64,000 nt of DNA from positions 96,001-160,000 of the forward strand of contig CBDEUK010000001.1 of NCBI GenBank assembly GCA_965243205.1. The letters are read 5' to 3'. The notes beneath the pieces were generated by a model. It was not told the DNA's origin, ran no database searches, and saw nothing but the letters and a program-made list of their open reading frames with translations. Every line of letters begins with the position of its first letter. Within the stretch, counting starts at the first letter, position 1. Positions 1-20,331 of this stretch are shown one piece after another. The stretch is from Gammaproteobacteria bacterium (GTDB lineage Bacteria; Pseudomonadota; Gammaproteobacteria; Eutrophobiales; Eutrophobiaceae). Position numbers and translations under genes: made by a program.

Positions 1-131
1 AATGGTAATTGAGTTTTACTTTTACTAAATGTTTGAGAACCCAATGGAATTGAGTTTAATGCTCGTTCCAAAAATTTCTCTGAATACTTATAACGCCCTA
101 ATTTATTACTAATTGTTATCTCCTCAGACAT
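1..131 (-). CDS. Partial (5' end only) class III PLP aminotransferase, GSA-aminomutase-like type found in polysaccharide loci
   Basis: Not in ORF track. My translation from ATG at 131, overlapping the spsF-like stop: MSEEITISNKLGRYKYSEKFLERALNSIPLGSQTFSKSKTQLP. IPLGSQTFSKS is typical of this family's N-terminus. Runs off the window edge. Confidence 0.75.
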   Translation of the reverse strand, partial: MSEEITISNKLGRYKYSEKFLERALNSIPLGSQTFSKSKTQLP

Positions 132-882
132 ACATAGTTGAATATCCAGTTTCTGTATAAGGTGCAGTAAGTTCTATTAACTTTGGATTCCTATCTAAAA
201 ACTCAACCACATCTAACACCGATATCATCGGAGCCTGTTCAGAAAATTGATTATAAACAATACGGCAAACAGCAAGATCTTCAGGATTATCTACTGTTAA
301 CCTCAAATCTCTTCTAACTAATTTTTCAGGAGGGGTGTCTTTAATGATCTTGAACAGTGTCTGATGTTCTCGAATATATAAACTACAGAGTTCAGAACGA
401 TGTTTTACACCACCATCTTTATGCGATGTCTCAAGCGCATTTAATTTAATGATCTCATATCCACAGCCATCGATCACATCATCCATAAAAGTTGCATCCG
501 CATTTCCATTTTGATGATGGTTCCAAGATTTTTCAACTGTCTGATAATAAAGAAACGGAGATTCACTTGTAACACGGAATACGTCAGTAGCATTAACTAG
601 TTTTCCACAATCTATCAATCTCTGCAGAACATCTATCTGATCTCCGATGATATACTTTAGTCCTTTCTCTTCAGCAATGATTTTAAATATTTCGTTTTCA
701 ATTCCTTCTGAGATACCAAGTACAACTTCATCTATACAATCGATATTGTTTAAGCATGAAATGATATTATCAATAATACGGATTCCATGATTTACATCTA
801 GATTTTGTATTGGTTTACCATATAATCTTGAGCCTTGGTTGCGACAAGCAAGTGCAGCGACTAATTTTCTATCGTTACTCAA
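124..882 (-). CDS. Acylneuraminate cytidylyltransferase family protein (SpsF-like)
   Basis: N-terminal ACRNQGSRLYGK (variant of ARxxSxRLPGK), DVLxR, RVTSESP and RLTVDxPED motifs; adjacent to a NeuB-like gene. Confidence 0.8.
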   Translation of the reverse strand: MSNDRKLVAALACRNQGSRLYGKPIQNLDVNHGIRIIDNIISCLNNIDCIDEVVLGISEGIENEIFKIIAEEKGLKYIIGDQIDVLQRLIDCGKLVNATDVFRVTSESPFLYYQTVEKSWNHHQNGNADATFMDDVIDGCGYEIIKLNALETSHKDGGVKHRSELCSLYIREHQTLFKIIKDTPPEKLVRRDLRLTVDNPEDLAVCRIVYNQFSEQAPMISVLDVVEFLDRNPKLIELTAPYTETGYSTMYV

Positions 883-1880
883 TTTATATCATCCGGTTTA
901 ACAGGCGCGTTTTTTTTAATATCCTGAATTACTGTCTTATTATAAACTTTTTCAAGGTGGGTTATATTCGACTCTGCAGATGTCCTTTTTAAACCAACAT
1001 CCTCTGGTTGAATGATCGTACCGTTTTTCAATTGCTTTGTAGTAACGACATGACGTCTTATCATTTCACGATATTGATACTCAGACTCGCTCATACCAAA
1101 ATCGTTTTTATTTTTTGAATTACCATATGCGGCAACACAACTTCGGACAGTTTCGGTAAATACAGAAAATTCATCTGGATTCAGTGCTGATTCATGATCT
1201 TCTAACTTCATAGATTTACCCAGAGTTAAATGTTTTTCAATTACTTCTGCTCCAGCTCCAATCGCTGTTGCAGCAAGAGAATAAGCTAATTCAGTATTTG
1301 GCTCTGCATGATCAGCAAATCCAACTTTTACATCTAAATCTTTCTCATTAAATATTTTATTGAAAAGCTGAATTCTAGATATCTGATTAGTATCATTTGG
1401 TGTTGGATATCCCTGAAACCCAAACAATACGATGATTGTTTTTTTATTTAATATCGCCAAAGCCTGTTTTATCTCATTAATAAACGCACCACCTGCACCT
1501 AAAATAACTTTTTGAACTCTACAATTTGCTACTTTTTCTAATAAACCAATATTGGCTATATCTGTTCCATGAAGTTTAATAGCATCAGCTTCAATTTTTT
1601 CAGCAAGTATAAGACTTTGTTCACCAAATATATCTAGATGCAGGTTAATACCAAGCTCAATCGCATAATCAGCGAGTTCTTTCCATACTTCGTCCGGCAT
1701 TTCTAATGATTTAAACAAATCGTAATACTGGTAATCTGGTGTCGCTAGTTCATCAGCGTAGACCAATTGATATTTAACACTATCTGCATTAGCCGAATTC
1801 GCGGCCTGCATCAATAACTTCGCTTGTTCAGGTTTACCTTCAAAACCCTGAGCTAATTCTGCAATAATTTCTACATTCAT
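879..1880 (-). CDS. N-acetylneuraminate synthase family protein (NeuB-like) with C-terminal SAF/AFP domain
   Basis: IIAE, VKYQ, GFADH, IEKHLTL and DHESALNP motifs; C-terminal RRHVV...LKR SAF domain. Confidence 0.85.
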   Translation of the reverse strand: MNVEIIAELAQGFEGKPEQAKLLMQAANSANADSVKYQLVYADELATPDYQYYDLFKSLEMPDEVWKELADYAIELGINLHLDIFGEQSLILAEKIEADAIKLHGTDIANIGLLEKVANCRVQKVILGAGGAFINEIKQALAILNKKTIIVLFGFQGYPTPNDTNQISRIQLFNKIFNEKDLDVKVGFADHAEPNTELAYSLAATAIGAGAEVIEKHLTLGKSMKLEDHESALNPDEFSVFTETVRSCVAAYGNSKNKNDFGMSESEYQYREMIRRHVVTTKQLKNGTIIQPEDVGLKRTSAESNITHLEKVYNKTVIQDIKKNAPVKPDDIN

Positions 1881-1907
1881 ATCGTTATCCTGATATTAGT
1901 TATGCTG

Positions 1908-2765
1908 TCACCACTTAGATGGATTCAATAAATTGATATCCTCTGAATTAAAATCAATTGATTCTGTATCTATTTTTGTATTGTAGGCACTAATTATTTC
2001 TTTTAAATGTTTTAAACTATCTACACCAATAATAATTTTATTAATCTCTGAATAAGCTGTCACAAAACCCAAGCAAGCCTGTAATGCCGTCAATTTATAT
2101 TTCTTCAACCATCGTTCATATAATTGCCAATTTTTTTCCCATAACTTAAATTTATCTGGACGCTGTTCAGAGTTCATCAATAATAAACCCTGTAAAAAAA
2201 CAGAACGAACATGTACCTCGATACCCATACTACTCAGTGAATTAAGCCAACCGGAGGTAACAAGCCTATGATCGAATATATTGAAAGGCGCTTGTACAAT
2301 ATCTATATCGAAATTATCTAATAATGTATGTAACTCGGATGGGTCATAAACAGAAACACCTATCTTATTGATAAATTTTTGCTGTTTAAGATCAAGTAAG
2401 GTTTGATAAAGTTCTTTTCCTTGTTCAGAAAAGAGCATTTCAGGTTTATGTAATAATAGCCCAAATAATTTATCTGTATTCAACTTACTAATTGAATCCA
2501 ATATGGAACTTCTTGCCCACGTTTTTATATCCTCACATTCTTGTGGTACAGCTGGTAGTTTGGTTATCAATTCCCAATCATTAACTCCTATTTTACCAAG
2601 TATTTCCTCTGCATTACCGTAAGCAACTGCTGTATCCAAAGTATGAATGCCATTATCCGATGAATAGCTAAGGATTTCTTTAACATCACTAAATGGAATA
2701 ATCCCATGTTGATTAGCAATACCATATTCAGTACCGAATTGAACTGTACCCAAAGCTAGTTTCAA
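1908..2765 (-). CDS. Aldo/keto reductase
   Basis: LGTVQFG..YG, LDTAVAYGNAE, IGVSVY and RSVFLQGLL motifs; TTG start. Confidence 0.85.
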   Translation of the reverse strand: MKLALGTVQFGTEYGIANQHGIIPFSDVKEILSYSSDNGIHTLDTAVAYGNAEEILGKIGVNDWELITKLPAVPQECEDIKTWARSSILDSISKLNTDKLFGLLLHKPEMLFSEQGKELYQTLLDLKQQKFINKIGVSVYDPSELHTLLDNFDIDIVQAPFNIFDHRLVTSGWLNSLSSMGIEVHVRSVFLQGLLLMNSEQRPDKFKLWEKNWQLYERWLKKYKLTALQACLGFVTAYSEINKIIIGVDSLKHLKEIISAYNTKIDTESIDFNSEDINLLNPSKW

Positions 2766-2780
2766 TATATAAAGTAATTC

Positions 2781-3986
2781 CTATTTTTCTAATGTATTTT
2801 TTAGAGCAAAGAGTACTTCTGACAACATATCATCCTTTAGCTCATAGTAAATTGGGATAGATAACGCCTGATAGTAATAATCCTTTGTTATGGGATAATC
2901 ATCCCGTTTAAATCCACGCTCTGCATAATAAGGATGAAATGGCACAGGTATATAATGTACTTGAGTACCAATATTTTTATCAAACAACTCTCGCATGACT
3001 TGGCCACGTGATTTGCCCAGTTTTTCGAAGTCAATACGAATCACATATAGATGTAGTGAACTATTATTACGTGATGAAGTTTGAGTTAATGTAACAAAAG
3101 GTAATTTCGCAAGTTCTTTGTCATAGATTTCTGCAATTTTTTTTCTGCGCTCTATAAATTTATTTATTTTTTTTAGCTGTGATAAAGCTAAAGCACATTG
3201 GAAGTCTGTAATACGATAATTAAACCCCAACTCCTGCATCTCATAATACCATGGGTTCAGCTTTCCTTTATCTATAGCTTCTTCTTGGTATATCAACGCA
3301 TCATCACCTTCGCTAATCCCAGGAATATCAAAATTACCTTTACATATTCCGTGACTTCGGAGTTGTAAAAGTCTTAGATAAATCGAATAATCATTCGTTG
3401 TGATCACACCTCCTTCACCTGCTGTAACACCTTTAACAGGGTGTAATGAAAATACTGTCATATCAGAATACTCACAACTTCCAACATATTTTCCAGAAGG
3501 ATAGATAGCACCGAGTGCATGTGATGCGTCTTCAATTATTTTTGCATTATGTTTTCTTGCAATATAATTTATTGACTCCATGTCACAAGGTAAACCAGCA
3601 AAATGTACTGGGATCACAGCATCTATTCCTGGTTCATTTGTAACATGGGATAAAAGTGACTCTGGAGACATATTAAGTGTATCAGGATCAATATCGGTAA
3701 ATTGCGGTTTTCCACCTGTATATAGAACAGAATTCGCACTAGCAACAAACGTATTCGCTGACGTATAAACTTTATTGTTTGGACCAATATCTGCTGCCAT
3801 GCACGCAAGATGTAAAGCTGCTGTTCCACTTGAGACTGCTACAGCATATTTTGAACCAACCTGCTTTGCTAAAGTCTTTTCAAATTCATATATGACAGGA
3901 CCTTGAGTCAGGGTACCGGACTTTAGTACTTTAATGACTTCCTCTATGTCATCCTCATCAATGTAATGTTGTCCGTAAGGAATCAT
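2781..3986 (-). CDS. pseC: DegT/PseC-like nucleotide-sugar aminotransferase
   Basis: MIPYGQHYIDEDDI start; EDASHALG, SLHPVK (PLP Lys), GFNYR and QVHYIP motifs. Confidence 0.75.
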   Translation of the reverse strand: MIPYGQHYIDEDDIEEVIKVLKSGTLTQGPVIYEFEKTLAKQVGSKYAVAVSSGTAALHLACMAADIGPNNKVYTSANTFVASANSVLYTGGKPQFTDIDPDTLNMSPESLLSHVTNEPGIDAVIPVHFAGLPCDMESINYIARKHNAKIIEDASHALGAIYPSGKYVGSCEYSDMTVFSLHPVKGVTAGEGGVITTNDYSIYLRLLQLRSHGICKGNFDIPGISEGDDALIYQEEAIDKGKLNPWYYEMQELGFNYRITDFQCALALSQLKKINKFIERRKKIAEIYDKELAKLPFVTLTQTSSRNNSSLHLYVIRIDFEKLGKSRGQVMRELFDKNIGTQVHYIPVPFHPYYAERGFKRDDYPITKDYYYQALSIPIYYELKDDMLSEVLFALKNTLEK

Positions 3987-4897
3987 AGTTTATAAAGTTT
4001 TGTAGCTAGCCCTTCTTGTTCTTGTTCATACAATCTATGCAGATGTTGCTCTACATTACCAAGTTTTTTACCCAATAAAGTACAGGTTTTCTTATTAGAT
4101 AGGCTCATATCGAGTGGTCGTTTTACCAAATCTGTTTTATTTTTTAATAATCCTGGCTTTATATATTGTTCATCAAAATTAAATACATTGGCTAATTTTT
4201 TACCAAACTCATATTTTGACAAACGCTCATCACCTACTACATGATAAATACCCGTAGCATTTTTATCCAGTAACTCGTGTACCGTCTGAACAAGTGTTTC
4301 AATTAAAATTGGTGTGTAAAATACATCTTGAAATAAATAGATATCCTTGTTATTTCGCAAAGCATTTATGATCTGATCACTAAATGATTGCCGATATGAT
4401 GTGCCCCAACCGTAAAAATTAGTACGAATGATTAACGTTTCAGGATTTGCTTCTAATACTAATTTTTCAGCCTCTGCTTTAGTACGAGCATATTCATTAA
4501 GTGGAAATATATCTGAGCTTTCTTTTACACATGCTTCATCACCGGAAAATAAATGATCAGTTGATATATGGACTAATTTTATATTTCGTTGAGAACAAGA
4601 TCTGGCGATATTTGCTGAAAGTTCTGCGTTTACATGATAGGAATCATCTTTATTGGATTCACATATCTCCACATTTGCTAAACCTGCACTATGAATTATG
4701 ATATCAGGATTATTTAATTCCAAATATGAATTTAATTCTTGATTCGATCCTAAATCTACTAAACTAGCATTAGCGCCTTGAAAATATATTTCACGTTTAT
4801 GTAAAGCGAGTTGAACTAAAAATTTATCTAATACAGTAAAAGCCCAATTCAAAGCTAACAAGCCAGAACCACCAGTCAGCAGTATCTTTTTATCCAT
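3983..4897 (-). CDS. RmlD/SpsK-like NDP-4-keto-sugar reductase (SDR)
   Basis: TGGSGLL, HISTD, YxxxK (YARTK) and RPLDMSL motifs. Confidence 0.8.
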   Translation of the reverse strand: MDKKILLTGGSGLLALNWAFTVLDKFLVQLALHKREIYFQGANASLVDLGSNQELNSYLELNNPDIIIHSAGLANVEICESNKDDSYHVNAELSANIARSCSQRNIKLVHISTDHLFSGDEACVKESSDIFPLNEYARTKAEAEKLVLEANPETLIIRTNFYGWGTSYRQSFSDQIINALRNNKDIYLFQDVFYTPILIETLVQTVHELLDKNATGIYHVVGDERLSKYEFGKKLANVFNFDEQYIKPGLLKNKTDLVKRPLDMSLSNKKTCTLLGKKLGNVEQHLHRLYEQEQEGLATKLYKL

Positions 4898-6138: not shown

Positions 6139-6918
6139 TTATGCGATCCTTTTTAAATAACCATCAGGTGCAACAGTAATTTGCAATTTATTCGCTATAT
6201 CTTTATCTATTTGGAATTCAGGATGTGATTTAATAAACTCCCAAACAGCAGTCTTAGGATTATCCCCTTTACCCCAAGGCCTATCAGGAAACATATCTGC
6301 TGGCATATCTTCTATGACAGTATCAAATACAACACAATAGCTATCTAAAGTAGTTAAATCTGCATAAGCATTTAATTCTTTTAAAACATGATCATGGGTA
6401 TGATTTGAATCTAAAACAACTAATATAGAACTATAATTTTTTGCAATACCATAAACTTTATCAACTACTTCTTGACTTATACTCGAACCCTCAATCATCT
6501 CAATGTATGAAGATAATGGATGATTATTAATCTCTTTCTTATTATGTTCTCTAATATCGATATCAATTCCTAATATTTTCCTTCTAGACGCTTGTGGGTT
6601 AATACTTTCATTTTTTTCAGCCGCTTCTACCACATCTAACATAGCCAACATGGATGCACTAAAAATTAATGAACCACCATGTGCTATACCTGTTTCAATA
6701 ATAAGGTCCGGCCTTATCTTCCATATTAACTCCTGCATACAAACAATATCTTGAGGATATTGTATAATCGGTCTACCCATCCATGTAAAATTATATGAGT
6801 ATTTATAAGGAGCTGACTTTAAAAGCCAATGATTAGAAAGTTCATGTAAGTCACTGTCCTTGCCGATTCTTTCAATATTTTTATTAACTTCATCTTTAAA
6901 TTTTTGTATGGCATCCAT
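6139..6918 (-). CDS. CmcI (cephalosporin hydroxylase) family protein, probable sugar O-methyltransferase
   Basis: FTWMGRPIIQYPQD, ETGIAHGGS, LDSNHTHDHV and APDGYL motifs. Confidence 0.85.
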   Translation of the reverse strand: MDAIQKFKDEVNKNIERIGKDSDLHELSNHWLLKSAPYKYSYNFTWMGRPIIQYPQDIVCMQELIWKIRPDLIIETGIAHGGSLIFSASMLAMLDVVEAAEKNESINPQASRRKILGIDIDIREHNKKEINNHPLSSYIEMIEGSSISQEVVDKVYGIAKNYSSILVVLDSNHTHDHVLKELNAYADLTTLDSYCVVFDTVIEDMPADMFPDRPWGKGDNPKTAVWEFIKSHPEFQIDKDIANKLQITVAPDGYLKRIA

Positions 6919-6947: not shown

Positions 6948-8084
6948 TTAAGATTTATTGAGTGATTTTATTTTTTGGGAATATTCGACCATTAATACCG
7001 AATCTGAATCTATATTTTCTCTGATTACTGCACCAGATGAAATTACAACATCACTACTAATTTTAATATTTGGCTCAACAACGATACCTGTTGCAAACCT
7101 TATTCTATTTCCTATCGTAACATTTCCTGATGTTGTAACATTTGGTCCAAAAGCACAATGACTACCTAATATATTGCCATGTTCTAAGCAAACATTACTA
7201 CTTATAAAATTATTATCACCGATAAAGGAACAAGCTCCAATATACGTATTTCCTAAAATAACATTTCCTTCTCCTATCTCTACTAATGAACGTATATTAG
7301 AAGAATCGTCAATAACATTTGCAAAAGGTATTTCCATAGATTTTATTTCATTAAATACTTTTTCGCGTTCTTTAAGATCACCATTAAAAGCAATCACAAC
7401 TGAATCTATTATTTTGTTAGCAAATAAATCCCCTAATTTATCTATTGTCCCAACAACAGGAACACCCAGTATAGTTTTATTATGATAGTAAGGATTTTTA
7501 TCTAATACAGCCACAGGGCTTTGATTCTTACTTCGTAATAAAGAATCAATAATAATTAATGCGCCTCCACCTCCAGCACCACCAATAATCGCAACACGCT
7601 CTAAATTCGCAAATCCTAGTAAGCGATTTTTATTTTGTTCATATTCGATATATTCAAGAACATGATTTTCTTTTATTTTTGTAATCGAGGGATATTGTTT
7701 TGAAATTTCTTCGAGAAGAATATTATTCTTTTTTGCTATTAGTTCAGCTTTTTTAGTAAACGATATTTCATCAGAAGAAATTAACTTTTCGCTATCATTC
7801 TCTTGCTTAAATATTTTATCAACTTCACTATCAGATAAATTCTTATTAGAAAGAATTCCCATAATTGCATTCACAGAAAGTTCATCAGAAATTTCTACAT
7901 TCCAGTAAATATATCCATCAGATTCAGACACCACATCAATTGCAGTTTTGGTAGTTTCTACTACTGCAATAATATCATCATTATTTATGAAACTATCATT
8001 TTCATAAAGTTTGCTAACAAGGTTACATGATTGATCATTAACGCCTAAGAATGGCACTCGAATTAAAGTATATTCATCTTTCAT
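6948..8084 (-). CDS. Fusion of lipoyl domain, PSBD-like segment and PglD/NeuD-type left-handed beta-helix sugar acyltransferase
   Basis: VVETTK(46)TAIDV lipoyl motif; FTKKAELIAKKNNI...KIKENHV E3-binding-like segment; AIIGGAGGG Rossmann motif; hexapeptide repeats with LEHG. Confidence 0.75.
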   Translation of the reverse strand: MKDEYTLIRVPFLGVNDQSCNLVSKLYENDSFINNDDIIAVVETTKTAIDVVSESDGYIYWNVEISDELSVNAIMGILSNKNLSDSEVDKIFKQENDSEKLISSDEISFTKKAELIAKKNNILLEEISKQYPSITKIKENHVLEYIEYEQNKNRLLGFANLERVAIIGGAGGGGALIIIDSLLRSKNQSPVAVLDKNPYYHNKTILGVPVVGTIDKLGDLFANKIIDSVVIAFNGDLKEREKVFNEIKSMEIPFANVIDDSSNIRSLVEIGEGNVILGNTYIGACSFIGDNNFISSNVCLEHGNILGSHCAFGPNVTTSGNVTIGNRIRFATGIVVEPNIKISSDVVISSGAVIRENIDSDSVLMVEYSQKIKSLNKS

Positions 8085-9085
8085 TGAATTAGTTCGTTTA
8101 TAGCCAGTTTAATATTATCTATATTTACAAGTACTTTTTCTTCTAATTCTTTAGCCGCAGGTATAATAGAATTATCTGAAGATAAACAGATTATTTTTTT
8201 ATCCATAGAAAAATTTTTACTTTCATAAATTGCCTTTAACACATCAGCATTCCAGCCGAATGCTCCAGCGCCAGGTTCACATATTATATACCCATATGAA
8301 GGACAATTGAGTTGATTAATCTCTTTAATAAAGTCTAAATTATTTATTATAGATGGATAAAATACTCTTATATTGATTTCTTCATCGATAAAATCTTCTA
8401 AAATTTTATTCACCATTTGACTCATTGAACCATACGAAAATATACAAATATCAGGATTCAATCCTGAAGAAAAGTTATCTACTATGGCAATAGAATTTTT
8501 TCCAATCTGTTTTTCATTAATATTTAAAGAACCACTTTTATTATTAATTAACGGACATGTATATATATCTTTACCTTCAATAAATATTGTTACTTCATCA
8601 TCTTCTACTGATTCAATGAAGAGTTTTTTTACATCATGAGCAAGACTCGGAGAAACTACAGTAACCCCCGGCATTCCAAAAAAAAGCTTTTCAATACTCT
8701 GGCTATGAGTAGGCCCATAGCCTCTTCCGCCTCCCATAGGCGTACGAATCAAAAGCGGTACATTTACTTCTTCTCCATACATAAGTCCAAACTTCGAAGC
8801 ACTGTTTAATACTTGATCAACAGTCAAACTCATGAAGTCACCAAACATTATTTCTACAATTGGTCTGTATCCTTGTAATGCTAAACCAATCCCTACTCCA
8901 ACAATTGCCGCTTCACTAATAGGTGTGGCTATCACTTTTTCAGGAAATTTATCAGATAACCCTTTTGTAACTTTAAAGGCACCTCCATATGGATCTAGTA
9001 TATCTTCACCAAGAATTAAAACGTTATCTTTCTGTTCAAATACTTCAAAAAAACCTTTATTTATTGAATTAAGATAAGTTTCCAA
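8081..9085 (-). CDS. ThDP-dependent 2-oxoacid dehydrogenase E1 beta subunit (transketolase-like)
   Basis: LGEDILDPYGG, TPISE, EIMFGDF and GPTHSQ motifs; TTG start. Confidence 0.85.
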   Translation of the reverse strand: METYLNSINKGFFEVFEQKDNVLILGEDILDPYGGAFKVTKGLSDKFPEKVIATPISEAAIVGVGIGLALQGYRPIVEIMFGDFMSLTVDQVLNSASKFGLMYGEEVNVPLLIRTPMGGGRGYGPTHSQSIEKLFFGMPGVTVVSPSLAHDVKKLFIESVEDDEVTIFIEGKDIYTCPLINNKSGSLNINEKQIGKNSIAIVDNFSSGLNPDICIFSYGSMSQMVNKILEDFIDEEINIRVFYPSIINNLDFIKEINQLNCPSYGYIICEPGAGAFGWNADVLKAIYESKNFSMDKKIICLSSDNSIIPAAKELEEKVLVNIDNIKLAINELIQ

Positions 9086-9088
9086 AAT

Positions 9089-9967
9089 TTACCCTACTAG
9101 TTTATCAACAACTAATTTAATCTCTTTTTGCACCTCAGATTCGATTTCGTTAAAGAGATCTTTATTTAAAATATTTTTCATTTTATCTATTGGGTCTTGC
9201 AATTTATAACTATCAATTTCTTCTTTAGCACGAAAATCATCACCTTTACTATGAGGAGAAAAACGATAGGTATTGAGTATTAACATTTTTGGTTTGCTTG
9301 TTTCTCTAACTTTATTTACAAGTTCGATAGCCGAACTGTGGACTGTTTCTAACTCCATACCATCGATAACTTTTGTTTCTATTTGAAATGCATTTGCTCG
9401 TTCTTCGAATGAACCGATATGTTGCATATGAGAGGGAGTTGATTGAGCGTATTTGTTATGCTCAACAACAATAAGAACTGGTAAATTCCACAATGAAGCA
9501 ATGTTAAATGTTTCATATATAATACCTTCTCCGAACGTTCCATCTCCTATAAAAGCAACAGCAATAGCTCCAGATTTTTTTAATTTTTCAGCTAAAGCCA
9601 TCCCTGCAACGATCGGAACTCCTGCTCCCTGTATTCCATTAGAATAATAATTATTTTTATGTAAATGCTGACTACCACCAATACCTAAACACACTCCGTC
9701 CTTTCTACCCATAACTTCTGCTATTAAGCCATAGACATCATTACTGTAAGCTAGATAATGACCATGTCCTCTATGGTTAGAAAATAAGATATCTTTTTTT
9801 TTGTCTAAAGCATTTACAACACCAACTGCACAAGCTTCTTGGCCAATACAAGTATGCACAGTTCCTCTTAAAAGCCCTTTAGAAAACAGTTCAAGCAAGC
9901 TTTCTTCAACGCGACGTATAAGTAACATTTGCCGAGTAAGATCATAAAAATCAGGTGAAGTTGTCAT
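9089..9967 (-). CDS. ThDP-dependent 2-oxoacid dehydrogenase E1 alpha subunit
   Basis: GTVHTCIGQEA, HRGHGH, GDG...N ThDP motif and TYRFSPHS. Confidence 0.9.
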   Translation of the reverse strand: MTTSPDFYDLTRQMLLIRRVEESLLELFSKGLLRGTVHTCIGQEACAVGVVNALDKKKDILFSNHRGHGHYLAYSNDVYGLIAEVMGRKDGVCLGIGGSQHLHKNNYYSNGIQGAGVPIVAGMALAEKLKKSGAIAVAFIGDGTFGEGIIYETFNIASLWNLPVLIVVEHNKYAQSTPSHMQHIGSFEERANAFQIETKVIDGMELETVHSSAIELVNKVRETSKPKMLILNTYRFSPHSKGDDFRAKEEIDSYKLQDPIDKMKNILNKDLFNEIESEVQKEIKLVVDKLVG

Positions 9968-11085
9968 TAATCGCTTAATTTTCTATATGTATTGAGTATC
10001 ACTTCTATTACTCGATCTTGATCAGAGAATGTCATTTCATGATAAGAAGGTAAATTTATTGCTCTTTCTGGAATTGAATAGGCATTATAATTTGAAGAAA
10101 CTTCATCGAACATATCTAAGCTGCTTAAAGGCCAGAAAAAAACTCTTGCATCGATATTTTCTTTACCAAAATTTGATTGTAACTCTTCTCTCGTTATACC
10201 TATTTCATCATCGAAAACAACTGTAGGCATCCAAACACCATTTTGTGTTCCAGCCTTCTCTGGATTCATCGAAAGACCTTTTACTTCACCTAAATGTTTT
10301 TGATAATAATGAAATATCTCTCTCTTTTTACATATCAATTCATCGATACGCTCTAATTGCGCGCAACCTATTGCTGCTTGTATGTTTGACATTTTATATT
10401 TAAACCCTACTTTATCAGGCCAAAATTGTTTTTTTTGGCTACGTGCTCGTCCGTGATTTGAAAGGGTTAAAGCTGTTTCATAAAGCTGGGAGTTACTGGT
10501 TACAAATATACCTCCCTCACCAGTTGTTAATGTCTTAGTTCCATGAAAAGAAAATGTACCAAATTCTCCAATCGAACCTGCACGTTTTCCATGATAAATC
10601 GAACCAATAGCCTCTGCTGAGTCTTCAATTATCGGAATACCATACTTATTACCAATTGAATTTAACTCAGCCATTTCACATAAATTTCCATATAAATGTA
10701 CCGCAATAATAGCTTTGGTTTTAGGTGTAATAGCTTTTTCAACTAATTCAGGATTAATACACCAGCTATCTTCTAAAATATCAACAAATACTGGTGTTGC
10801 ATTAAGATAAGTAATTGGTGCAGCCGTTGCAATCCAATTGGTGTCTGCCAAAATGATTTCATCTCCTGCTCCTATACCAAGCGATGCTAATCCAAGATGT
10901 AATGCACCAGTACAACTTGAAGTAGCAATAGCATATTCAACATCTAGATGTTCTTTAAAATTTTTCTCAAACCGATTGATATAATCATAACAATGCTTTC
11001 CCCAACCATTAGTTGTAGCATCAACGGCATATTCAACCTCTTTTTCTGAAATAGAAGGCTTTGTGTAAAATATTTTTGATTTCAC
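9967..11085 (-). CDS. DegT/DnrJ family aminotransferase (perosamine synthetase-like)
   Basis: SSCTGALHL, EDSAEA, SFHGTK (PLP Lys) and TTGEGG motifs. Confidence 0.85.
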   Translation of the reverse strand: MKSKIFYTKPSISEKEVEYAVDATTNGWGKHCYDYINRFEKNFKEHLDVEYAIATSSCTGALHLGLASLGIGAGDEIILADTNWIATAAPITYLNATPVFVDILEDSWCINPELVEKAITPKTKAIIAVHLYGNLCEMAELNSIGNKYGIPIIEDSAEAIGSIYHGKRAGSIGEFGTFSFHGTKTLTTGEGGIFVTSNSQLYETALTLSNHGRARSQKKQFWPDKVGFKYKMSNIQAAIGCAQLERIDELICKKREIFHYYQKHLGEVKGLSMNPEKAGTQNGVWMPTVVFDDEIGITREELQSNFGKENIDARVFFWPLSSLDMFDEVSSNYNAYSIPERAINLPSYHEMTFSDQDRVIEVILNTYRKLSD

Positions 11086-11169: not shown

Positions 11170-11943
11170 TTATTCCAATACAGCGTATGAAATAGAGGGA
11201 GTAGTTGGGAATCTTTTAATTTTTAAATTGGATATTCCTATCTCTTCTAAGACCGCAGTTGTTTCACCAGGCCATTGTTTTTGATTAAGTTCATCAAAAG
11301 CAATCACCCCACCCTTTGGAATTCGAGGATATAAATATTTCAAAGCAGCTTTGGTTGGTTCATATAGATCAAAATCTAAATATAGTAATGAAATTACAAG
11401 GTGTGGATTCTCTTCTACATAAGCTTTAATTGTTTGAACAGCATCACCTTCAACTAGTTCTAACTTAGGTATATGACCAATAGCTCTATTTAAATCATGT
11501 ATTTCAGCACAATTTAATAATTCCTGTTTGCCATTAAAAGAGTATGCCCCTTTATATTTATGCTCTTTATCAGCTTCTACCGAAGATTTATCGTTTTCAG
11601 CTAACGAAGGAAAACCTTCAAATGAATCAAAACCAATAATCTTTCGACCATGATTCACTGGTTCATAAATTGAACTCAATTGAAACCAAGTAAAAATTCC
11701 GCCACCTGTAAAAACACCACACTCTACAATGCTCCCATGTACTGGTAGGATTTCTTTAAATATTTCATGTTTTGCAATAAATTGACTTAAACTTTGTCTT
11801 GATACAAACCTTGGAAAAATATTTAACTTATCATTCACTGTACCAGATGCAGTATTGAAATGTTCTTCAATAGACTGCCTAAATTCCTGATCTAAATTCG
11901 TTTGAGTTGATTGGTTTTTTAAGGAAAATTTTTCAGTTTTCAT
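11170..11943 (-). CDS. TylF/MycF-family sugar O-methyltransferase
   Basis: GSIVECGV, GFDSFEGFP, LYLDFDLYEPT and GGVIAFDE motifs. Confidence 0.85.
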   Translation of the reverse strand: MKTEKFSLKNQSTQTNLDQEFRQSIEEHFNTASGTVNDKLNIFPRFVSRQSLSQFIAKHEIFKEILPVHGSIVECGVFTGGGIFTWFQLSSIYEPVNHGRKIIGFDSFEGFPSLAENDKSSVEADKEHKYKGAYSFNGKQELLNCAEIHDLNRAIGHIPKLELVEGDAVQTIKAYVEENPHLVISLLYLDFDLYEPTKAALKYLYPRIPKGGVIAFDELNQKQWPGETTAVLEEIGISNLKIKRFPTTPSISYAVLE

Positions 11944-12817
11944 TTTTTATACACTCAGGGTGAATATCTTCAAATTGACTCCCTTCTATCATGCCTCCAG
12001 GCCAGCCTTTTTCAACAGCAGTTTTATTTTGAAAATTTGCATACCTTAATTGTGTTGACCATCTAACATCCCCTTTACTCATTGGGACACTTTTATGAAG
12101 CAACAATGTATTAAAAACTAAAACATCTGTTAAATTAACTTCTACAGTATAAGCATCATAGTCATCAAATTTATCAGAGCCTATAATTTCAATCGTATGC
12201 GCCCCATTCTTATTTTTATTCTCAGGGTCAATTAATCTAACATCACAAATGCCGTTTTTATGGCTTTCAGGAATAATTTTAACTCCACCAAACCCTTCTT
12301 TCATTTCCATTAAAGGCATCCATAAAACTACTCCATCAGGAGAGCCTTGAATATAAGGATAATCTTGATGCCAACCAAATAAATATTTTTCTTCTCCTTT
12401 AATATCTATTCGAATAGGGATATAAGGTAATAAATTTACAAATTCAGTCTCCATCAAAAAACCAGCAAAATTTAGATTTTTTGTCTTTGATAGTAGTTGA
12501 AATAAAGATGGCAAATGTCTTGTAGCCCTATAAATTTCACCCGCTTTTGAACGATCAATTTTACAAAGTTCAATAAAGTTTTCCGAATGAATTCTATCGT
12601 CAGCATCATTTTTGTATTGTTTAAAATTAGATTCTTCTAACTTTAGTCTGATTAAATTATTTACTTCTCTAAAAACAGGTTTTAAATCTTTATCTAAATC
12701 AAAAAAATTTCTTATTAAAACCCATCCTTTTGATTGATAATGTTCTTTACAATCATTAGACATGCATTGCGTAACATCATAAATTCCATAATCATCTTTA
12801 TATTTTGTTACAGGCAT
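11933..12817 (-). CDS. Phytanoyl-CoA dioxygenase family 2OG-Fe(II) hydroxylase
   Basis: WHQDY (HxD), LWMPL, IPESH, LLHKS and RWS..LRY motifs. Confidence 0.85.
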   Translation of the reverse strand: MPVTKYKDDYGIYDVTQCMSNDCKEHYQSKGWVLIRNFFDLDKDLKPVFREVNNLIRLKLEESNFKQYKNDADDRIHSENFIELCKIDRSKAGEIYRATRHLPSLFQLLSKTKNLNFAGFLMETEFVNLLPYIPIRIDIKGEEKYLFGWHQDYPYIQGSPDGVVLWMPLMEMKEGFGGVKIIPESHKNGICDVRLIDPENKNKNGAHTIEIIGSDKFDDYDAYTVEVNLTDVLVFNTLLLHKSVPMSKGDVRWSTQLRYANFQNKTAVEKGWPGGMIEGSQFEDIHPECIKNEN

Positions 12818-12833
12818 TTCTGTATTATTCCAG

Positions 12834-13601
12834 TTATTTTTTTATGAAAAAACCGCCAGGAGTTGAAGTCCATGGAAACTTATTAAGTACAGGCATTTCA
12901 TCTTTAAAATAATCCTCAAAAGCAGAACTCTCACCACCCCACTCTGTCATTGCATATTCATCTAAAACAACTAATCCTCCAGGCACAACTCTAGGATATA
13001 AGTTTTCTAATGCAGCTAAATTTGGCTCATATATATCAACATCTAAATGCAATAATGAAATTCTAAGTCCAGGGTGCTGTTCAACATATTTTGGAACCGT
13101 TTCCAAGATATTACCTTCAACTATTTGAACTCGCTTAGCTTGAGGAACAAACATATCAGAATGATAAATATCAACAAACTCATAAAATGCGTCTTTGAAT
13201 TCTCCAGCACTCCAACCGCCTACAACTTTAGAACGGTTTTCATACATCGGGCCATCCTTGTCATTAAAATCTTGTAAGCCTTGAAAACTATCAAAACCGA
13301 TTACATTCCTTATCCTATCCCCTGGATGAAAAATTTCTAAAAACTTGGCAAATGCAAATAAACTATTACCTTGATAAACACCACATTCCACAATACAACC
13401 GGGTATATCTTGGATCATCTTATAAAGTTCATAATGAGCTAAAAAACGAGTAATATTTATTCTTCGAGCATATATAGCAAATGACTCCAAAACATCCTTC
13501 ATAGGAATATTTTCTTTTTCAATTACATCGACAATATTTTGCATCACATCCATGCCAGCTTGATTTTGTCCACCGTACATTTCTGATCTTTTTTTATCCA
13601 T
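12834..13601 (-). CDS. TylF/MycF-family sugar O-methyltransferase (second paralogue)
   Basis: GCIVECGV, GFDSFQG, LHLDVDIYEP and GGLVVLDEY motifs. Confidence 0.85.
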   Translation of the reverse strand: MDKKRSEMYGGQNQAGMDVMQNIVDVIEKENIPMKDVLESFAIYARRINITRFLAHYELYKMIQDIPGCIVECGVYQGNSLFAFAKFLEIFHPGDRIRNVIGFDSFQGLQDFNDKDGPMYENRSKVVGGWSAGEFKDAFYEFVDIYHSDMFVPQAKRVQIVEGNILETVPKYVEQHPGLRISLLHLDVDIYEPNLAALENLYPRVVPGGLVVLDEYAMTEWGGESSAFEDYFKDEMPVLNKFPWTSTPGGFFIKK

Positions 13602-13648: not shown

Positions 13649-14869
13649 TTATACTATCTCCAGTTGAGGTATAGTTACCACAAAATACCCACCCCAGTCA
13701 CGAATATAATCCAATTGTTCAGTTAACTCTGTTTTTAAATTCCAGGGTAAAATAACCACATAGTTAGGCTTGTCATTTTTAAGTCTAGCACCCTCTACTA
13801 TAGGTATGTGGCTACCAGGCATAAACTTACCTTGTTTAACTGCATTATTATCAACAATATATGATATTAAATCAGATTTAACGCCTAAATAATTTAATAA
13901 GGTATTACCTTTAGCAGCGGCACCATATGCAACAATCTTTTTTCCTTTTCTATTTTGTTCTAATAAAAAACTTAAAAAATCATTTTTAATTTTATTTACC
14001 CGATTTTGAAAATTAGTATAAGTAGAAAGTTCTCTACACCTTTCTTTTTCTTCTTGGTCAATAATTTCATATACAATTTCATTAACACTTCTACTATCAT
14101 CTACATGACATCCATATATTCTCAGGCTACCACCATGGGTAGGAAGCTTTTCAACATCAAAAATCTTCAAACCAGATTCTGTAAAAATTTTATTTACAGT
14201 ATAAAGAGATAAATATGAAAAATGTTCATGATATATAGTATCAAATTGACTGAGATTTATAAGATTCAGTAGATGTGGAAATTCTAATGTTACTACGCCA
14301 TCATCTTTGAGCATAGCCTTGAGGCCATTAGTAAAATTATTGATATCAGGCACATGAGCATATACATTGTTACCAATGATTAAATCTGCTTTTTTTTGTT
14401 TCGATAATTGTAATGCCAGATCATGACTAAAAAATTCACGAATTACTGAGACACCGAGTTTCTCAGCAGCATCAGCAGTACTATTAGTTGGTTCTATACC
14501 TACACAAGGAATTTCCAATTCCACAAAATTCTTTAGTAGATACCCATCATTTGAAGCAATCTCTATAACATAACTATCTTTATTAAGCTTCAATTTTTGT
14601 TTAATCATATAGACATAGTTTTTTGCATGTTCAAGCCAACTTTTTGAAATAGAAGAAAAATAAGCATAATCTGAAGAAAAAAGTTCTTCAGCATCAGAGT
14701 AGTCAATTGTTTGTACTAACCAACAACTTTCACATACATAAGTTTTAAGAGGGTACGTTGTTTCAGGTTTATTTAAATCTTCTAAATTTAAATACGCATT
14801 TGAAGGTGGAGCAAAACCTAAATCTAAAAAAACATGTTTAAGATTATTCTTACAATGACGACACTTCAT
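13649..14869 (-). CDS. NDP-hexose C-methyltransferase (TylC3/NovU type, Zn-finger plus SAM domain)
   Basis: CRHC...CESC Zn motif, EIASNDG, IYHEHFSY, YGAAAKG and ILPWN motifs. Confidence 0.88.
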   Translation of the reverse strand: MKCRHCKNNLKHVFLDLGFAPPSNAYLNLEDLNKPETTYPLKTYVCESCWLVQTIDYSDAEELFSSDYAYFSSISKSWLEHAKNYVYMIKQKLKLNKDSYVIEIASNDGYLLKNFVELEIPCVGIEPTNSTADAAEKLGVSVIREFFSHDLALQLSKQKKADLIIGNNVYAHVPDINNFTNGLKAMLKDDGVVTLEFPHLLNLINLSQFDTIYHEHFSYLSLYTVNKIFTESGLKIFDVEKLPTHGGSLRIYGCHVDDSRSVNEIVYEIIDQEEKERCRELSTYTNFQNRVNKIKNDFLSFLLEQNRKGKKIVAYGAAAKGNTLLNYLGVKSDLISYIVDNNAVKQGKFMPGSHIPIVEGARLKNDKPNYVVILPWNLKTELTEQLDYIRDWGGYFVVTIPQLEIV

Positions 14870-15423
14870 ATCATAATCCCAGAAAACTCAGATTGAATTA
14901 AGGGATGATTCAAATCACGTTCAGATATATCTGTTACAGGCAAAGGCCAAGTTATGTTGAGTATTGGATCATTGAATCTAAACCCTGCCTCATGTTCTGG
15001 GTTATAGTATTCAGTATGACAATAATATAACTCAGAATTTTCTTCTAACACTTGAAAGCCATGAGCACATCCTTCAGGAACAACCATCATTTTATAATTT
15101 TCTTTTGAAATTTCCTCAGCATGCCACTTCAAAAACGTTGGAGAATCTTTACGCAAATCAACAGCGACATCCCATACTTTACCTTTAATACATCTAATTA
15201 ATTTCATCTCAGAATAAGGAGGGTATTGTAAATGTAAGCCTCTAATAGAACCAATTGAATGAGTGAGTGAGTAATTCATTTGTACAATCTGTTTTTTTGC
15301 TAAAATATTATCTAATTCATTTTTGCAAATTAATCGGCTAAAACTTCCACGCTCATCAGAACGCACACTACTTTCAATTATCGATACACCATCAATTACA
15401 GTATTAGTAATTTTCAATGTCAT
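14866..15423 (-). CDS. rfbC: NDP-4-keto-6-deoxyhexose 3,5-epimerase (RmlC family)
   Basis: DERG, IRGLH, DVAVDLR..SPTF and GCAHGF motifs. Confidence 0.85.
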   Translation of the reverse strand: MTLKITNTVIDGVSIIESSVRSDERGSFSRLICKNELDNILAKKQIVQMNYSLTHSIGSIRGLHLQYPPYSEMKLIRCIKGKVWDVAVDLRKDSPTFLKWHAEEISKENYKMMVVPEGCAHGFQVLEENSELYYCHTEYYNPEHEAGFRFNDPILNITWPLPVTDISERDLNHPLIQSEFSGIMI

Positions 15424-15436: not shown

Positions 15437-16525
15437 CTAAACTAATAGATTTGAATAATACGTTAATTGTTCTTCACTAATAATTTTGTTATTAGTTTTA
15501 AATGTTTTATACCATTCTGCAGTTAGTTTCACAGTTTCTGAAAATTCAAGAATGGGTTTCCATCCAAGTATTTCCCTTGATTTAGTTGAATCTAAATGGA
15601 GTAATTGGGCTTCATGAGGTTGATTGCTTTCATTAGATTGCCATTCTATTTCAGGCCAATACTTTTTAAACTCTGTTAAAACAGAAGATACTGTTTTATT
15701 TGAATTTTTATTTGGCCCAAAATTCCATGCTGCAGCAAATTCATTTTTTCCTTGTAATAGTTTCTCACCAAGTTGGAGATATCCATTCAGAGATTCTAAA
15801 ACATGTTGCCATGGCCGCGTCGCATTAGGATATCGAATATTTAAAGTTTGATTTTCTCTATTAGATTTTACAAGGTCAGGTATAAGCCTATCTTCAGACC
15901 AATCACCTCCACCTATAACATTACCCGCACGTGCAGAAGCAACTAAAGCGGAGTTATTATCTGAGTAAAATGATTTTCTATAACTGGCAGCAACCAGTTC
16001 GGTGGCTGCTTTTGATGCACTATATGGATCATGTCCCCCTAAAGGGTCAGTTTCTACATAAGCTGTTTCTTGCTCATAATTTTCATAGCATTTATCTGAT
16101 GTAATAATAATTATAGCTTTTAGATCTAATAATTCTCTAGAGACATCAAGCAAATTAGCTGAACCTATAACATTAGTAGTCCAAGTTAATAAAGGATTAT
16201 TATATGAGCGTCTAACTAAAGGTTGTGCAGCAAGATGAAAAATAATTTCAGGAGAAAACTTTTGAATTATAGTTCCTAACTTATCTTTATCCCGAATATC
16301 TTGATAGTGATTTTCTATATTAAGATCTAATAATTGCCAATGATTTGGATATACTTCAGGAGGTAATGAAATACCGCAAACATTTGCTCCTAATTTTTTT
16401 AACCATAATGATAACCAACTTCCTTTAAAGCCACTATGTCCTGTGACCAAAACTCGTTTATCTTTATAAATATTTGAAAATAATTTTATTTCCAAACCCT
16501 CCATGGAGCTTCGCCTGAACTCCAT
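15437..16525 (-). CDS. rfbG: CDP-glucose 4,6-dehydratase
   Basis: [35 protein letters not shown] and RPWQHVLE motifs; true start may be slightly downstream. Confidence 0.93.
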
Positions 16526-17256
16526 AATTCATCTAAGGTAATTTTATCTCGCAGTGTATCCATCGGCTTCCAAAACCCTTTATGGATATACGATGATAAT
16601 TCACCATTTTGAGCAAGTCTTTCTAATGGCTCTCGTTCCCAAACTGTATCATCACCATCAATATAGTTAAGCGCTTCAGGTTTTAATACAAAAAAACCGC
16701 CACTGATCCATGAGCCATCTCCTTTAGGTTTTTCCTCAAATGTTTCGATCTTATTATCCTTAATATTAAGAGAACCAAAACGACCTGGAGGCTGAACAGC
16801 TGTAACCGTTGCTTTGGTGTTTTGTTTTTTATGAAATTGGATTAGTTCCGCAATATTGATATCGCTAACTCCATCTCCATAAGTAAAACAAAAATCCTCT
16901 TCATCGATGTATTCGGCAACACGTTTTAATCGGCCTCCAGTCATCGTATTCTCACCCGTATCAACTAACGTAACTTTCCAAGGCTCAGCATTTTGATGAT
17001 GTACTTGCATATTATTATTTGTCATATCAAAAGTTACATCTGACATATGTAAAAAATAATTCGCGAAATATTCTTTTATTACATAACCTTTATAACCACA
17101 ACATATAATAAATTCGTTAACATCATAGGACGAATACATTTTCATAATATGCCAGAGAACTGGTTTACCACCTATTTCAATCATTGGTTTAGGCTTAAGA
17201 TGAGATTCTTCAGAAATTCGTGTTCCTAAACCCCCAGCTAAAATTATTGCTTTCAT
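16486..17256 (-). CDS. rfbF: Glucose-1-phosphate cytidylyltransferase
   Basis: [25 protein letters not shown] and [10 protein letters not shown] motifs. Confidence 0.95.
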
Positions 17257-19145: not shown

Positions 19146-19748
19146 CTAAATATTTAATCCTAAAAAACTTGGGATAAATACATTCTCTTGATTAACTTCT
19201 AGGCTAATTTTTTTATAAATATCTTCTGCTTGGTCCAATGCAGTTATTAAACATGCATCGAAATGTTGAGAGTTATTTATAGTTCGACAAATTGGTTTTC
19301 CGAGGTAGTTATTTTTTTTTGTTTGCTGATCAAATGTTGCCGTATGTATTAACTCATGCTCATGTAAACGTACTGATGCAATCTCTGCTAACTCGGAAAC
19401 TCCACAAAATAAAATTTTCTTATGACCTAGCTGATGGCAAATATTAAAGGTCTCATTTACGGACTGACTGGCCTTACGATAAAAGTCAAAAGAATATGAA
19501 AGGTACTGTGCTGTCAGACGACTTTTTTCAGCAAAGCCTTTTGGAGTTAGATAGTAGAGATAGCGATTTGCCGGTATATGTTGAATTTTGATCAGGCCTT
19601 TATTGGCACAACGCTTTAAGTAGGAATTGGCCAAGCCAAGTGCCACGCCAAGATTATCGGCAAGATGACGCTGAGTAACCTCTTGATTTTCTTCAATAGT
19701 TTGAAGAATCTCTAAAGTCATTGCATCTTCTTTTTCCTTAGCGTTCAT
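19146..19748 (-). CDS. EPS-associated MarR-family winged-helix transcriptional regulator
   Basis: TQRHLA..LGVALGLANSYLKRC..KG and YLYYLTPKGFAEKSRL motifs. Start placed at ATG 19748 (MNAKEKE) rather than 19778. Confidence 0.85.
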   Translation of the reverse strand: MNAKEKEDAMTLEILQTIEENQEVTQRHLADNLGVALGLANSYLKRCANKGLIKIQHIPANRYLYYLTPKGFAEKSRLTAQYLSYSFDFYRKASQSVNETFNICHQLGHKKILFCGVSELAEIASVRLHEHELIHTATFDQQTKKNNYLGKPICRTINNSQHFDACLITALDQAEDIYKKISLEVNQENVFIPSFLGLNI

Positions 19749-19787
19749 AATATGAACATTATATATCAGCATGTTCATAAAATGAAC
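19743..19787. promoter_or_regulatory. Two GTTCAT-N3-ATGAAC palindromes flanking a TATAAT -10 box: probable MarR autoregulatory operators
   Basis: GTTCATAATATGAAC at 19743-19757 and GTTCATAAAATGAAC at 19773-19787, 30 bp apart; minus-strand TATAAT at 19758-19763. Confidence 0.65.
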
Positions 19788-19807
19788 TACTATATGTAGT
19801 AGTAGAC

Positions 19808-20326: not shown

Positions 20327-20331
20327 AACGA

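Follow-up and report, generated by a model that had tools for sequence, protein, structure and literature searches.

The locus described here raises the question of why the two subunits of a thiamine diphosphate (ThDP)-dependent E1 enzyme, together with a lipoyl domain fused to an acyltransferase, are encoded among genes for a nucleotide sugar. It lies in a stretch of 64,000 nt (the window) from a Gammaproteobacteria bacterium of the Eutrophobiaceae (assembly GCA_965243205.1, contig CBDEUK010000001.1, positions 96,001–160,000). Four minus-strand genes are arranged head to tail and translationally coupled: a DegT-family sugar aminotransferase gene (9967..11085; PF01041 DegT_DnrJ_EryC1, 3.8e-119), the gene for a ThDP-dependent E1 alpha subunit of 292 aa (9089..9967; E1_dh, 2.2e-57), the gene for a 334-aa E1 beta subunit with a TTG start (8081..9085; Transket_pyr, 4.5e-29), and the gene for a 378-aa fusion protein (6948..8084) that consists of a lipoyl domain, a segment like the peripheral subunit-binding domain (PSBD), a PglD_N-like domain, and a left-handed beta-helix acyltransferase. 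The last three genes are referred to as the trio. The DegT and E1alpha genes overlap by one base within TAATG (9969–9965), three nucleotides separate E1alpha from E1beta (9088–9086), and E1beta and the fusion gene overlap within ATGA (8084–8081); the open reading frames (ORFs) and all three junctions read as described in an earlier account made from the letters alone (the sequence-only reading).

The answer favored here, with somewhat better than even confidence, is that the trio carries an acyl group on a lipoyl arm loaded by E1, that the fused domain passes the acyl group to a 4-amino sugar, and that the Lpd protein of the host re-oxidizes the arm. Within this reading we infer lipoylation, loading of the arm, acyl transfer, independence from coenzyme A (CoA), a trimeric state, the use of E3, and the identity of the acyl group.

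A Lipoyl Domain Fused to a Sugar Acyltransferase

A search of a protein collection identified 152 relatives of the fusion protein (E ≤ 0.001, among 7821 candidates), most of which are 360–410 aa long and contain both domains. The source names of these relatives are generic (“biotin/lipoyl-containing protein”, “hypothetical protein”, acetyltransferase), with some labeled “sialic acid O-acetyltransferase NeuD family”, and the fusion represents an unnamed family with hundreds of members in many phyla. Among 104 aligned relatives the residues E43, K46, K112, A113, N292, F293, E301, H302, F312, G313, P314, S319, E337, and P338 are invariant. No longer fused forms were found at E ≤ 0.001, which is weak evidence, and a search among shorter proteins for a close relative of the beta-helix domain that stands alone was negative, returning only NeuD/PglB/VioB proteins with 25–29% identity and fragments on short contigs.

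The lipoyl domain occupies residues 4–80 (7845..8075, minus strand; K46 codon at 7947–7949). The Pfam Biotin_lipoyl match is weak in the single sequence of the window (residues 8–59, E = 6.1e-4) but solid at the level of the family because all of the aligned relatives match (104 out of 104, best 2.2e-15), and the family profile matches the lipoyl domains of Escherichia coli E2p at 2e-23. E43 and K46 of the ETTK motif are shared by every aligned member. In the AlphaFold2 model, residues 5–79 form a beta-sandwich (pLDDT, the predicted local distance difference test, >90 throughout the region) with K46 in the turn between strands 38–43 and 48–52, and a Foldseek comparison with lipoyl domains gives TM-scores on the target (TMt) of 0.81 for 3crk_C (root mean square deviation, rmsd, 1.3) and 0.71 for 1y8n_B. 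The lipoyl domain with ETTK46 named in the sequence-only reading is borne out by these results, and K46 is the predicted site of lipoylation. Within the host genome, a hidden Markov model (HMM) of the N-terminal part finds AceF (1.6e-19), SucB (4.6e-14), and BCCP (6.2e-9). A biotinyl domain was considered and ruled out, as the motif is ETTK and not MKM and the E2 lipoyl domains outscore BCCP.

Downstream of the lipoyl domain the model contains helices at residues 85–103, 111–119, 124–130, and 139–155. The PSBD-like segment spans residues 106–155 (7620..7769, minus strand), and its TKKAE motif includes K112 and A113, both present in 104 out of 104 members. Aligned with hhalign to 16 SucB E2 proteins from the same genome and its relatives, the family matches over 148 columns (probability 99.0, E = 4.6e-18) that place residues 7–154 of the fusion opposite residues 5–162 of E2, with the lipoyl domain and the PSBD in register (TKKAElL opposite sPAvRxLL). 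The middle segment is therefore likely, although not proven, to be PSBD-like; what stands of the E3-binding-like segment proposed earlier is a conserved helical segment in register with the PSBD of SucB, whereas its own sequence signal is weak.

The C-terminal half is a PerB/PglD-type N-acyltransferase (6990..7601, minus strand) with a PglD_N-like domain at residues 162–250 and a beta-helix at residues 254–365. It matches the NeuD/PglB/VioB family TIGR03570 over residues 166–364 (3.7e-36, 124.6 bits, under the cut-off of 160.8), and the family profile matches the perosamine N-acetyltransferase PerB (4ea7) at 1.1e-30. The AlphaFold2 model based on the family alignment (mean pLDDT 95.7, predicted TM-score 0.71) shows an alpha/beta domain at residues 162–249 followed by a regular beta-helix at residues 254–355, and the top Foldseek matches are PerB (TMt 0.88–0.90, rmsd 1.8 Å over 204 columns), followed by PglB-ATD, VioB, and PglD. 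H302 (codon 7179–7181), part of the invariant E301-H302 pair, shares its column with PerB His141, which was mutated to N or A in 4eaa and 4eab (H141N, H141A), and is the predicted catalytic His. All 104 members match Hexapep and 40 match PglD_N, whereas the chloramphenicol acetyltransferase (CAT)-like catalytic core of E2 (2-oxoacid_dh, PF00198) is matched neither by the fusion in the window nor by any of the 104 relatives. A PglD/NeuD-type transferase thus takes the place of the E2 core, as the sequence-only reading had held.

The same reading had noted the absence of two motifs from the transferase, and both losses extend to the whole family. Five stand-alone NeuD/PglB/VioB proteins (25–29% identical to the transferase of the fusion) were used for comparison; they contain a GGH/GH loop in the N-domain and, in four out of five cases, G-[VN]-P-[AG] near the C-terminus. 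A G-x-P-[AG] motif within the last 40 residues is found in 0 out of 104 fusion members versus 4 out of 5 stand-alone relatives, and the position of the GGH His reads G174 (102/104) and A175 (100/104). The G-x-P-A and GGH motifs of PglD-type enzymes probably contact CoA or the sugar. Conversely, NNF, FGP, S319, and E337-P338 are invariant in the fusion family and specific to it relative to the stand-alone transferases. At the sequence level, the loss of the motifs throughout the family fits, but does not establish, an altered donor site.

The E1 Subunits and the Host Genome

The E1alpha sequence carries a readable GDG...N ThDP motif and scores 256.9 bits against TIGR03182, the equivalog model for pyruvate dehydrogenase E1 alpha (cut-off 393.85). 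Residue equivalences in both subunits rest on alignment offsets to human E1alpha and to 1w85_B. H239 of E1alpha is invariant in 28 out of 28 sequences and aligns with the His of the “HGHS” loop of the human protein, and E58, F84, and H127 of E1beta (invariant in 30 out of 30) correspond, with the +1 offset seen in the match to 1w85_B, to E59beta, F85beta, and H128beta. According to the accessible text of one study, H128beta is the likely general acid/base in the reductive acetylation of lipoate, and a single PSBD binds on the two-fold axis of the E1 heterotetramer (PMC2663715).

The host genome (2.79 Mb, two contigs) contains no other alpha/beta-type E1, the only further E1_dh match being a 942-aa SucA-type protein, and the E1 of the cluster is therefore not borrowed from a catabolic complex. 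The remaining functions that the trio would need are encoded elsewhere: LipB (304.7 bits) and LipA (422.6 bits) both score over their cut-offs, as does Lpd (E3, 575.7 bits), whose gene is located next to sucB, and the genome contains two E2 cores. An E3 outside the trio locus, as anticipated in the sequence-only reading, was thus located beside sucB.

Linkage of the Fusion and E1 Genes

A pattern scan of one genome per GTDB species provided 78 confirmed fusion loci (numbered with the prefix L) in Gammaproteobacteria, Alphaproteobacteria, Bacteroidota, Chloroflexota, Acidobacteriota, Actinomycetota, Planctomycetota, Verrucomicrobiota, Armatimonadota, Bacillota, and others. In 63 out of 68 loci whose upstream DNA extends for 2.2 kb or more, the E1alpha and E1beta genes directly precede the fusion gene on the same strand (62 identified by script, plus L062, where the script had anchored on a second beta-helix gene). 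Among the ten loci with shorter upstream DNA, E1beta is present in six and the remaining four have just 59–724 nt upstream. The co-occurrence with E1alpha/E1beta in other genomes, on which the sequence-only reading depended, is therefore the rule. Pairwise distances of the fusion correlate with those of E1beta (r = 0.93) and E1alpha (r = 0.85; 24 loci, 999 permutations, p = 0.001), which shows joint inheritance of the fusion and E1, with shared descent inflating r. Four of the five fusions that lack an adjacent E1 (L030, L041, L047, and L060) keep ETTK and have no TKKAE-like motif, which fits a role of the TKKAE segment as the E1 dock; the cases are few, and L030, L041, and L060 group in the tree while L047 is placed elsewhere. 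As a separate observation, the fusion gene in L030 (5886–11227) and L041 (315–4093) follows genes for an enoyl-CoA hydratase, an amidase, and a DAO-type FAD oxidoreductase.

A tblastn search of the 78 loci with Lpd, SucB, and AceF of the host genome (E ≤ 1e-5) identified no E3 and no E2 catalytic core; the sole matches were between SucB residues 1–77 up to 2–214 and the N-terminal parts of 12 fusion genes. This result bears on an alternative in which the acyl-lipoyl group is passed to free CoA, by the beta-helix domain or by a housekeeping E2, and the acyl-CoA is then used in the manner of PerB and PglD. The characterized PerB/PglD/VioB members that were matched are crystallized with CoA or acetyl-CoA according to their PDB titles, and two E2 cores are available in the genome. 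However, a housekeeping E2 core serves the arms tethered to it, no locus supplies a core of its own, the C-terminal motif is lost in the entire family, and there would be no point in fusing the carrier to the transferase if the acyl group went by way of CoA; this alternative is considered unlikely.

The proposed aminotransferase partner was recovered in part. DegT homologues, counted by alignment over 150 residues, are encoded in 41 out of 78 loci; among the 46 loci flanked by 9 kb or more on each side, 35 have one, and in the rest it is missing. Clustering of 1143 ORFs identified 22 loci with Gfo/Idh/MocA oxidoreductases and 26 with SDR dehydratase/epimerases, and many loci contain only an oxidoreductase, DegT, and the trio. 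Gfo/Idh/MocA and SDR proteins are the usual company of an amino-sugar N-acetyltransferase, and the trio, together with Gfo/Idh/MocA and DegT, occupies the place where such an enzyme would be expected. In a midpoint-rooted FastTree phylogeny of 66 fusions (330–480 aa, others dropped), the window fusion groups with L001–L009, which always keep DegT beside the trio, and a Caldilineae clade is nested among the clades with a sugar context.

An alternative that retains the machine but changes its acceptor to a hydroxyl (O-acylation) or a non-sugar amine draws on the loci without DegT, on the Caldilineae context, which is free of sugar genes, and on the names NeuD/PglB/VioB (NCBIfam) and “sialic acid O-acetyltransferase NeuD family” attached to the family and its relatives. 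Such acceptors are possible in other clades. For the window they are unlikely, since DegT overlaps E1alpha by one base, the closest solved structures for DegT and the transferase are a perosamine synthase / perosamine N-acetyltransferase pair, and L001–L009 never separate DegT from the trio; as an explanation of this locus, the alternative is quite doubtful.

The fusion was found in 0 out of 40 relatives searched, in line with a glycan cassette that moves horizontally. For PDH-like genes in the lipopolysaccharide locus of Legionella pneumophila no paper was found, and no Legionella is among the 78 loci.

The Sugar Pathway

The trio and DegT are embedded in a minus-strand cassette for a CDP-sugar. 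The first step is provided by a glucose-1-phosphate cytidylyltransferase (16486..17256; TIGR02623, 477.8 bits, cut-off 300.25), followed by a CDP-glucose 4,6-dehydratase (15437..16525; TIGR02622, 475.8 bits, cut-off 278.45), an RmlC-like 3,5-epimerase (14866..15423; PF00908, 7e-58; TIGR01221, 158.2 bits, cut-off 155.75), and a sugar 3-C-methyltransferase of the TylCIII/TcaB9 type (13649..14869; Methyltransf_13/14) with the D-mycarose 3-C-methyltransferase 4rv9 (5.2e-68) and TcaB9 as its nearest solved structures. A TylF-like O-methyltransferase (11170..11943; PF05711, 3.3e-13) precedes DegT, and a CmcI/rhamnosyl O-methyltransferase-like gene (6139..6918; PF04989, 2.8e-94) is the last gene of the cassette. 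The order cytidylyltransferase, 4,6-dehydratase, epimerase, 3-C-methyltransferase, DegT, E1alpha, E1beta, fusion, TylF-like and CmcI/rhamnosyl-type O-methyltransferases is shared within the clade of the window; in L001–L009 the TylF-like gene follows the fusion gene and the CmcI/rhamnosyl-type gene follows both. An optional add-on consists of a PhyH-type Fe(II)/2-oxoglutarate dioxygenase (11933..12817; PF05721, 2.5e-10) and a second TylF-like O-methyltransferase (12834..13601; PF05711, 7.6e-19). It is present in the window (11933–13601), L003 (11140–12789), and L007 (11140–12790) and absent from L001, L002, and L006, which suggests hydroxylation and subsequent O-methylation of an otherwise unfunctionalized position, possibly on the acyl group.

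The nearest solved structures of DegT are 7b0m (1.1e-77) and the perosamine synthetase 3bn1 (2.1e-70), and the protein is probably the 4-aminotransferase that makes the acceptor amine. Because the nearest structures are perosamine synthetases for DegT and a perosamine N-acetyltransferase for the transferase, the N-acyl acceptor is taken to be an amino sugar. No other beta-helix acyltransferase gene is located in positions 1–24000 of the window. The expected product is a CDP-4-acylamido-4,6-dideoxy-3-C-methyl-hexose with O-methyl groups, which presumably resembles the N-acylkansosamine of Mycobacterium kansasii, a likeness that serves as a lead only. Kansosamine is named in PMC4403928, and its biosynthesis is not treated in the accessible part of that text.

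A heavily tailored deoxysugar is also the setting of an alternative modeled on the biosynthesis of paulomycose, avilamycin, and yersiniose, in which the E1 pair adds a pyruvate-derived two-carbon chain to a keto sugar and the fusion is an acetyl-CoA-dependent N-acetyltransferase whose N-terminus only docks E1. The Plm8/Plm9 pair, encoded in a deoxysugar cluster, is reported to attach a two-carbon chain from pyruvate, and is described in the accessible text as two proteins with no mention of a lipoyl protein (PMC4802897). The preserved PerB fold of the beta-helix domain would suit this alternative, but the lipoyl lysine that is invariant in 104 out of 104 members would have no role, and the invariant equivalent of H128beta in E1beta, a residue that matters for the acylation of lipoate rather than for decarboxylation, would go unused. 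Furthermore, C3 and C4 of the sugar are already taken by the 3-C-methyltransferase and the 4-aminotransferase, many loci consist of an oxidoreductase, DegT, and the trio only, and the C-terminal G-x-P-A of the stand-alone family is lost in all fusion members. A branch-chain reaction is therefore improbable as the function of the E1 pair.

A Proposed Mechanism and Its Weak Points

In the mechanism favored here, acyl transfer from a lipoyl arm to an amino sugar, the three genes would encode a dedicated miniature complex similar to the 2-oxoacid dehydrogenases in which a trimeric PerB/PglD-type beta-helix replaces the E2 core. A ThDP-containing E1alpha2beta2 heterotetramer, probably held by the PSBD-like segment, would decarboxylate a 2-oxo acid or cleave a ketose and reductively acylate the lipoyl group on K46. 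The acyl-dihydrolipoyl arm would then enter the donor groove of the fused beta-helix domain, where His302 would catalyze aminolysis, with the thioester attacked by the 4-amino group of the sugar that DegT supplies, a CDP-4-amino-4,6-dideoxy-3-C-methyl-hexose. The product would be an N-acyl sugar formed without any acyl-CoA, and the housekeeping Lpd would re-oxidize the dihydrolipoyl arm. By similarity of E1 the acyl group may be acetyl from pyruvate; the existence of such a machine would make more sense if the acyl group were one without a CoA pool (glycolyl, lactyl, or propionyl).

Several observations weigh against this mechanism. Lipoylation, acyl loading, and transfer are each read from sequence comparisons, and if the acyl group is plain acetyl the gain over acetyl-CoA is unclear. 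The Pfam lipoyl match of the single window sequence falls below the gathering score (20.0 vs. 22.1 bits), the Pfam family E3_binding matches only 4 out of 104 members, an HMM restricted to the middle segment recovers only the segment itself and none of the E2 PSBDs of the genome, and an atlas look-up of that segment gives E3_binding clusters at 0.75–0.77, a lead only. The overall fold and length of PerB are kept, and the beta-helix domain may still contain an intact CoA site. The E1alpha family differs from human pyruvate dehydrogenase E1alpha in the motifs GTVH/GFCH, GGSQHLH/GGSMHMY, and YAQST/YGMGT; because these differences lie in the pocket region and E1alpha scores below the pyruvate dehydrogenase cut-off, the substrate of E1 may be either a 2-oxo acid or a ketose. 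Five out of 68 fusions (L011, L030, L041, L047, and L060) have no adjacent E1, and DegT is missing from 37 out of 78 loci, including 11 of the 46 that are flanked by 9 kb or more on each side.

The Caldilineae clade differs most in context. Genes for TetR, MFS, and aldo-keto reductase proteins, sometimes with a 4HBT thioesterase, are located directly upstream of E1alpha-E1beta-fusion, and the loci of this type (L012, L013, L014, L019, L020, L025, L026, L027, and L031) have a Fumble gene nearby and no DegT. Fumble is the type II pantothenate-kinase family. As this clade is found in a non-sugar context, the acceptor is not always an amino sugar made by DegT. Of the CoA-independent acylation machine as originally conceived, the computable predictions have held (the fold, the linkage with E1, the lack of an E2 core and E3 in the loci, and the presence of Lpd, LipA, and LipB in the host), while the pairing with DegT and a sugar acceptor is limited in extent, with DegT in only 41 out of 78 loci and the Caldilineae clade in a non-sugar context.

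Comparison with Known Systems

The trio shares with the pyruvate, 2-oxoglutarate, and branched-chain 2-oxoacid dehydrogenase complexes (PDH, OGDH, and BCKDH) a heterotetramer-type E1 in which the ThDP motif is retained along with the catalytic Glu, Phe, and His, an N-terminal order of lipoyl domain, linker, and likely PSBD-like segment that aligns with E2, and an expected reliance on LipB/LipA and Lpd, all of which are encoded in the genome. It differs from these complexes in having a beta-helix sugar acyltransferase in place of the CAT-like core, in the lack of an E3 gene in the locus, and in its presumed acceptor, a nucleoside diphosphate (NDP)-amino sugar instead of CoA. With PerB, PglD, VioB, and PglB-ATD the fusion has in common the two-domain fold (Foldseek TMt 0.84–0.90), the column of the catalytic His, and a DegT-family aminotransferase as partner. 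Unlike these enzymes it scores below the TIGR03570 cut-off, has about 160 extra N-terminal residues, is nearly always encoded beside E1 (63/68), and lacks the C-terminal G-x-P-A and the GGH His.

Dedicated E1 and lipoyl proteins have been described outside central metabolism. In the QncN/QncL/QncM system (tetrahydroisoquinoline) and SclQ1-4 (scleric acid), a ThDP-dependent E1-like enzyme and a lipoyl domain together supply an acyl carrier protein (ACP) with a glycolicacyl unit, as described in the accessible text of PMC6335953, and these systems resemble the trio in that a cluster-encoded E1 and a lipoyl domain provide an acyl unit with no free CoA ester. According to their descriptions, the Qnc and Scl systems are set apart by an E2-type acyltransferase domain and an ACP acceptor, compared with a beta-helix enzyme and a presumed nucleotide sugar in the trio. 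No ACP appeared in general scans of ORFs of at least 80 aa in positions 1–24000 of the window, none of which was aimed at ACP. Plm8/Plm9 and AviB1/B2 likewise place E1alpha/beta genes among genes for NDP-deoxysugar tailoring (PMC4802897, accessible text), and they differ from the trio, whose lipoyl carrier is fused to the transferase, in being described as forming a two-carbon C-branch and in the absence of any lipoyl partner from that text. A precedent for a left-handed beta-helix transferase fed by a protein-tethered thioester is provided by LpxA and LpxD (PDB molecule names), of which LpxD is an N-acyltransferase of an amino sugar; their acyl groups arrive on a phosphopantetheinyl ACP, a separate protein charged by fatty-acid synthesis, in contrast to a fused lipoyl domain loaded by E1.

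A search of the literature outside subscription journals and supplements identified no lipoyl/beta-helix fusion and no E1 genes in O-antigen clusters. Overall, the trio follows the logic of the 2-oxoacid dehydrogenases with a different transferase and acceptor, and the fusion has no functional description in the literature or the database names that were found.

Neighboring Genes in the Window

A second sugar pathway is encoded at 124–4897 (minus strand) by genes for PseC (477 bits, over the cut-off), an RmlD-like reductase, an aldo-keto reductase, a NeuB-like synthase (below the cut-off), and a CTP_transf_3 protein; this gene set marks it as a nonulosonic-acid branch. The glycan locus runs past the left edge of the window, with genes for a PglF-like 636-aa protein and a 192-aa beta-helix transferase upstream in the contig. 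At 19146–20940 (minus strand), genes for an APS kinase, a NusG/RfaH-like protein, and a winged-helix regulator are located between the glycan genes and two genes of the UDP-glucose/GDP-mannose dehydrogenase family, and this group may contribute operon control and a supply for sulfation.

Beside the glycan locus are the genes for two giant paralogous proteins, one of 1804 aa (24867–30281, plus strand; Beta_helix/NosD, Calx-beta, DUF11) and one of 1733 aa (30478–35679, plus strand; Calx-beta, DUF11), whose 3′ parts have a G+C fraction of ~0.5 compared with ~0.33 around them. These surface-type proteins might be substrates of the glycosylation genes. In a 1360-aa protein encoded at 48920–53002 (plus strand), a Ser/Thr protein kinase domain occurs together with a domain of the FGE-sulfatase type.

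Implications

A broader proposal, for which the weights for and against are judged equal, is that the family constitutes a widespread class of CoA-independent acylation systems: a beta-helix trimer with three lipoyl arms and its own docked E1 would place acyl groups that have no CoA pool directly onto nucleotide amino sugars, with a different acceptor in one clade, and the product in the window would be a kansosamine-like CDP-4-acylamido-4,6-dideoxy-3-C-methyl-O-methyl-hexose. If correct, sugar-modifying beta-helix transferases would have, in the lipoyl arm, a third type of acyl donor beside acyl-CoA and acyl-ACP, and the E1/lipoyl logic of central metabolism would have been recruited for the tailoring of surface glycans in many phyla. 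This would explain unusual N-acyl groups on bacterial amino sugars for which there is no matching acyl-CoA, and glycoengineering would gain a compact module of three genes. One biochemical study would suffice to annotate the hundreds of family members that at present carry generic names.

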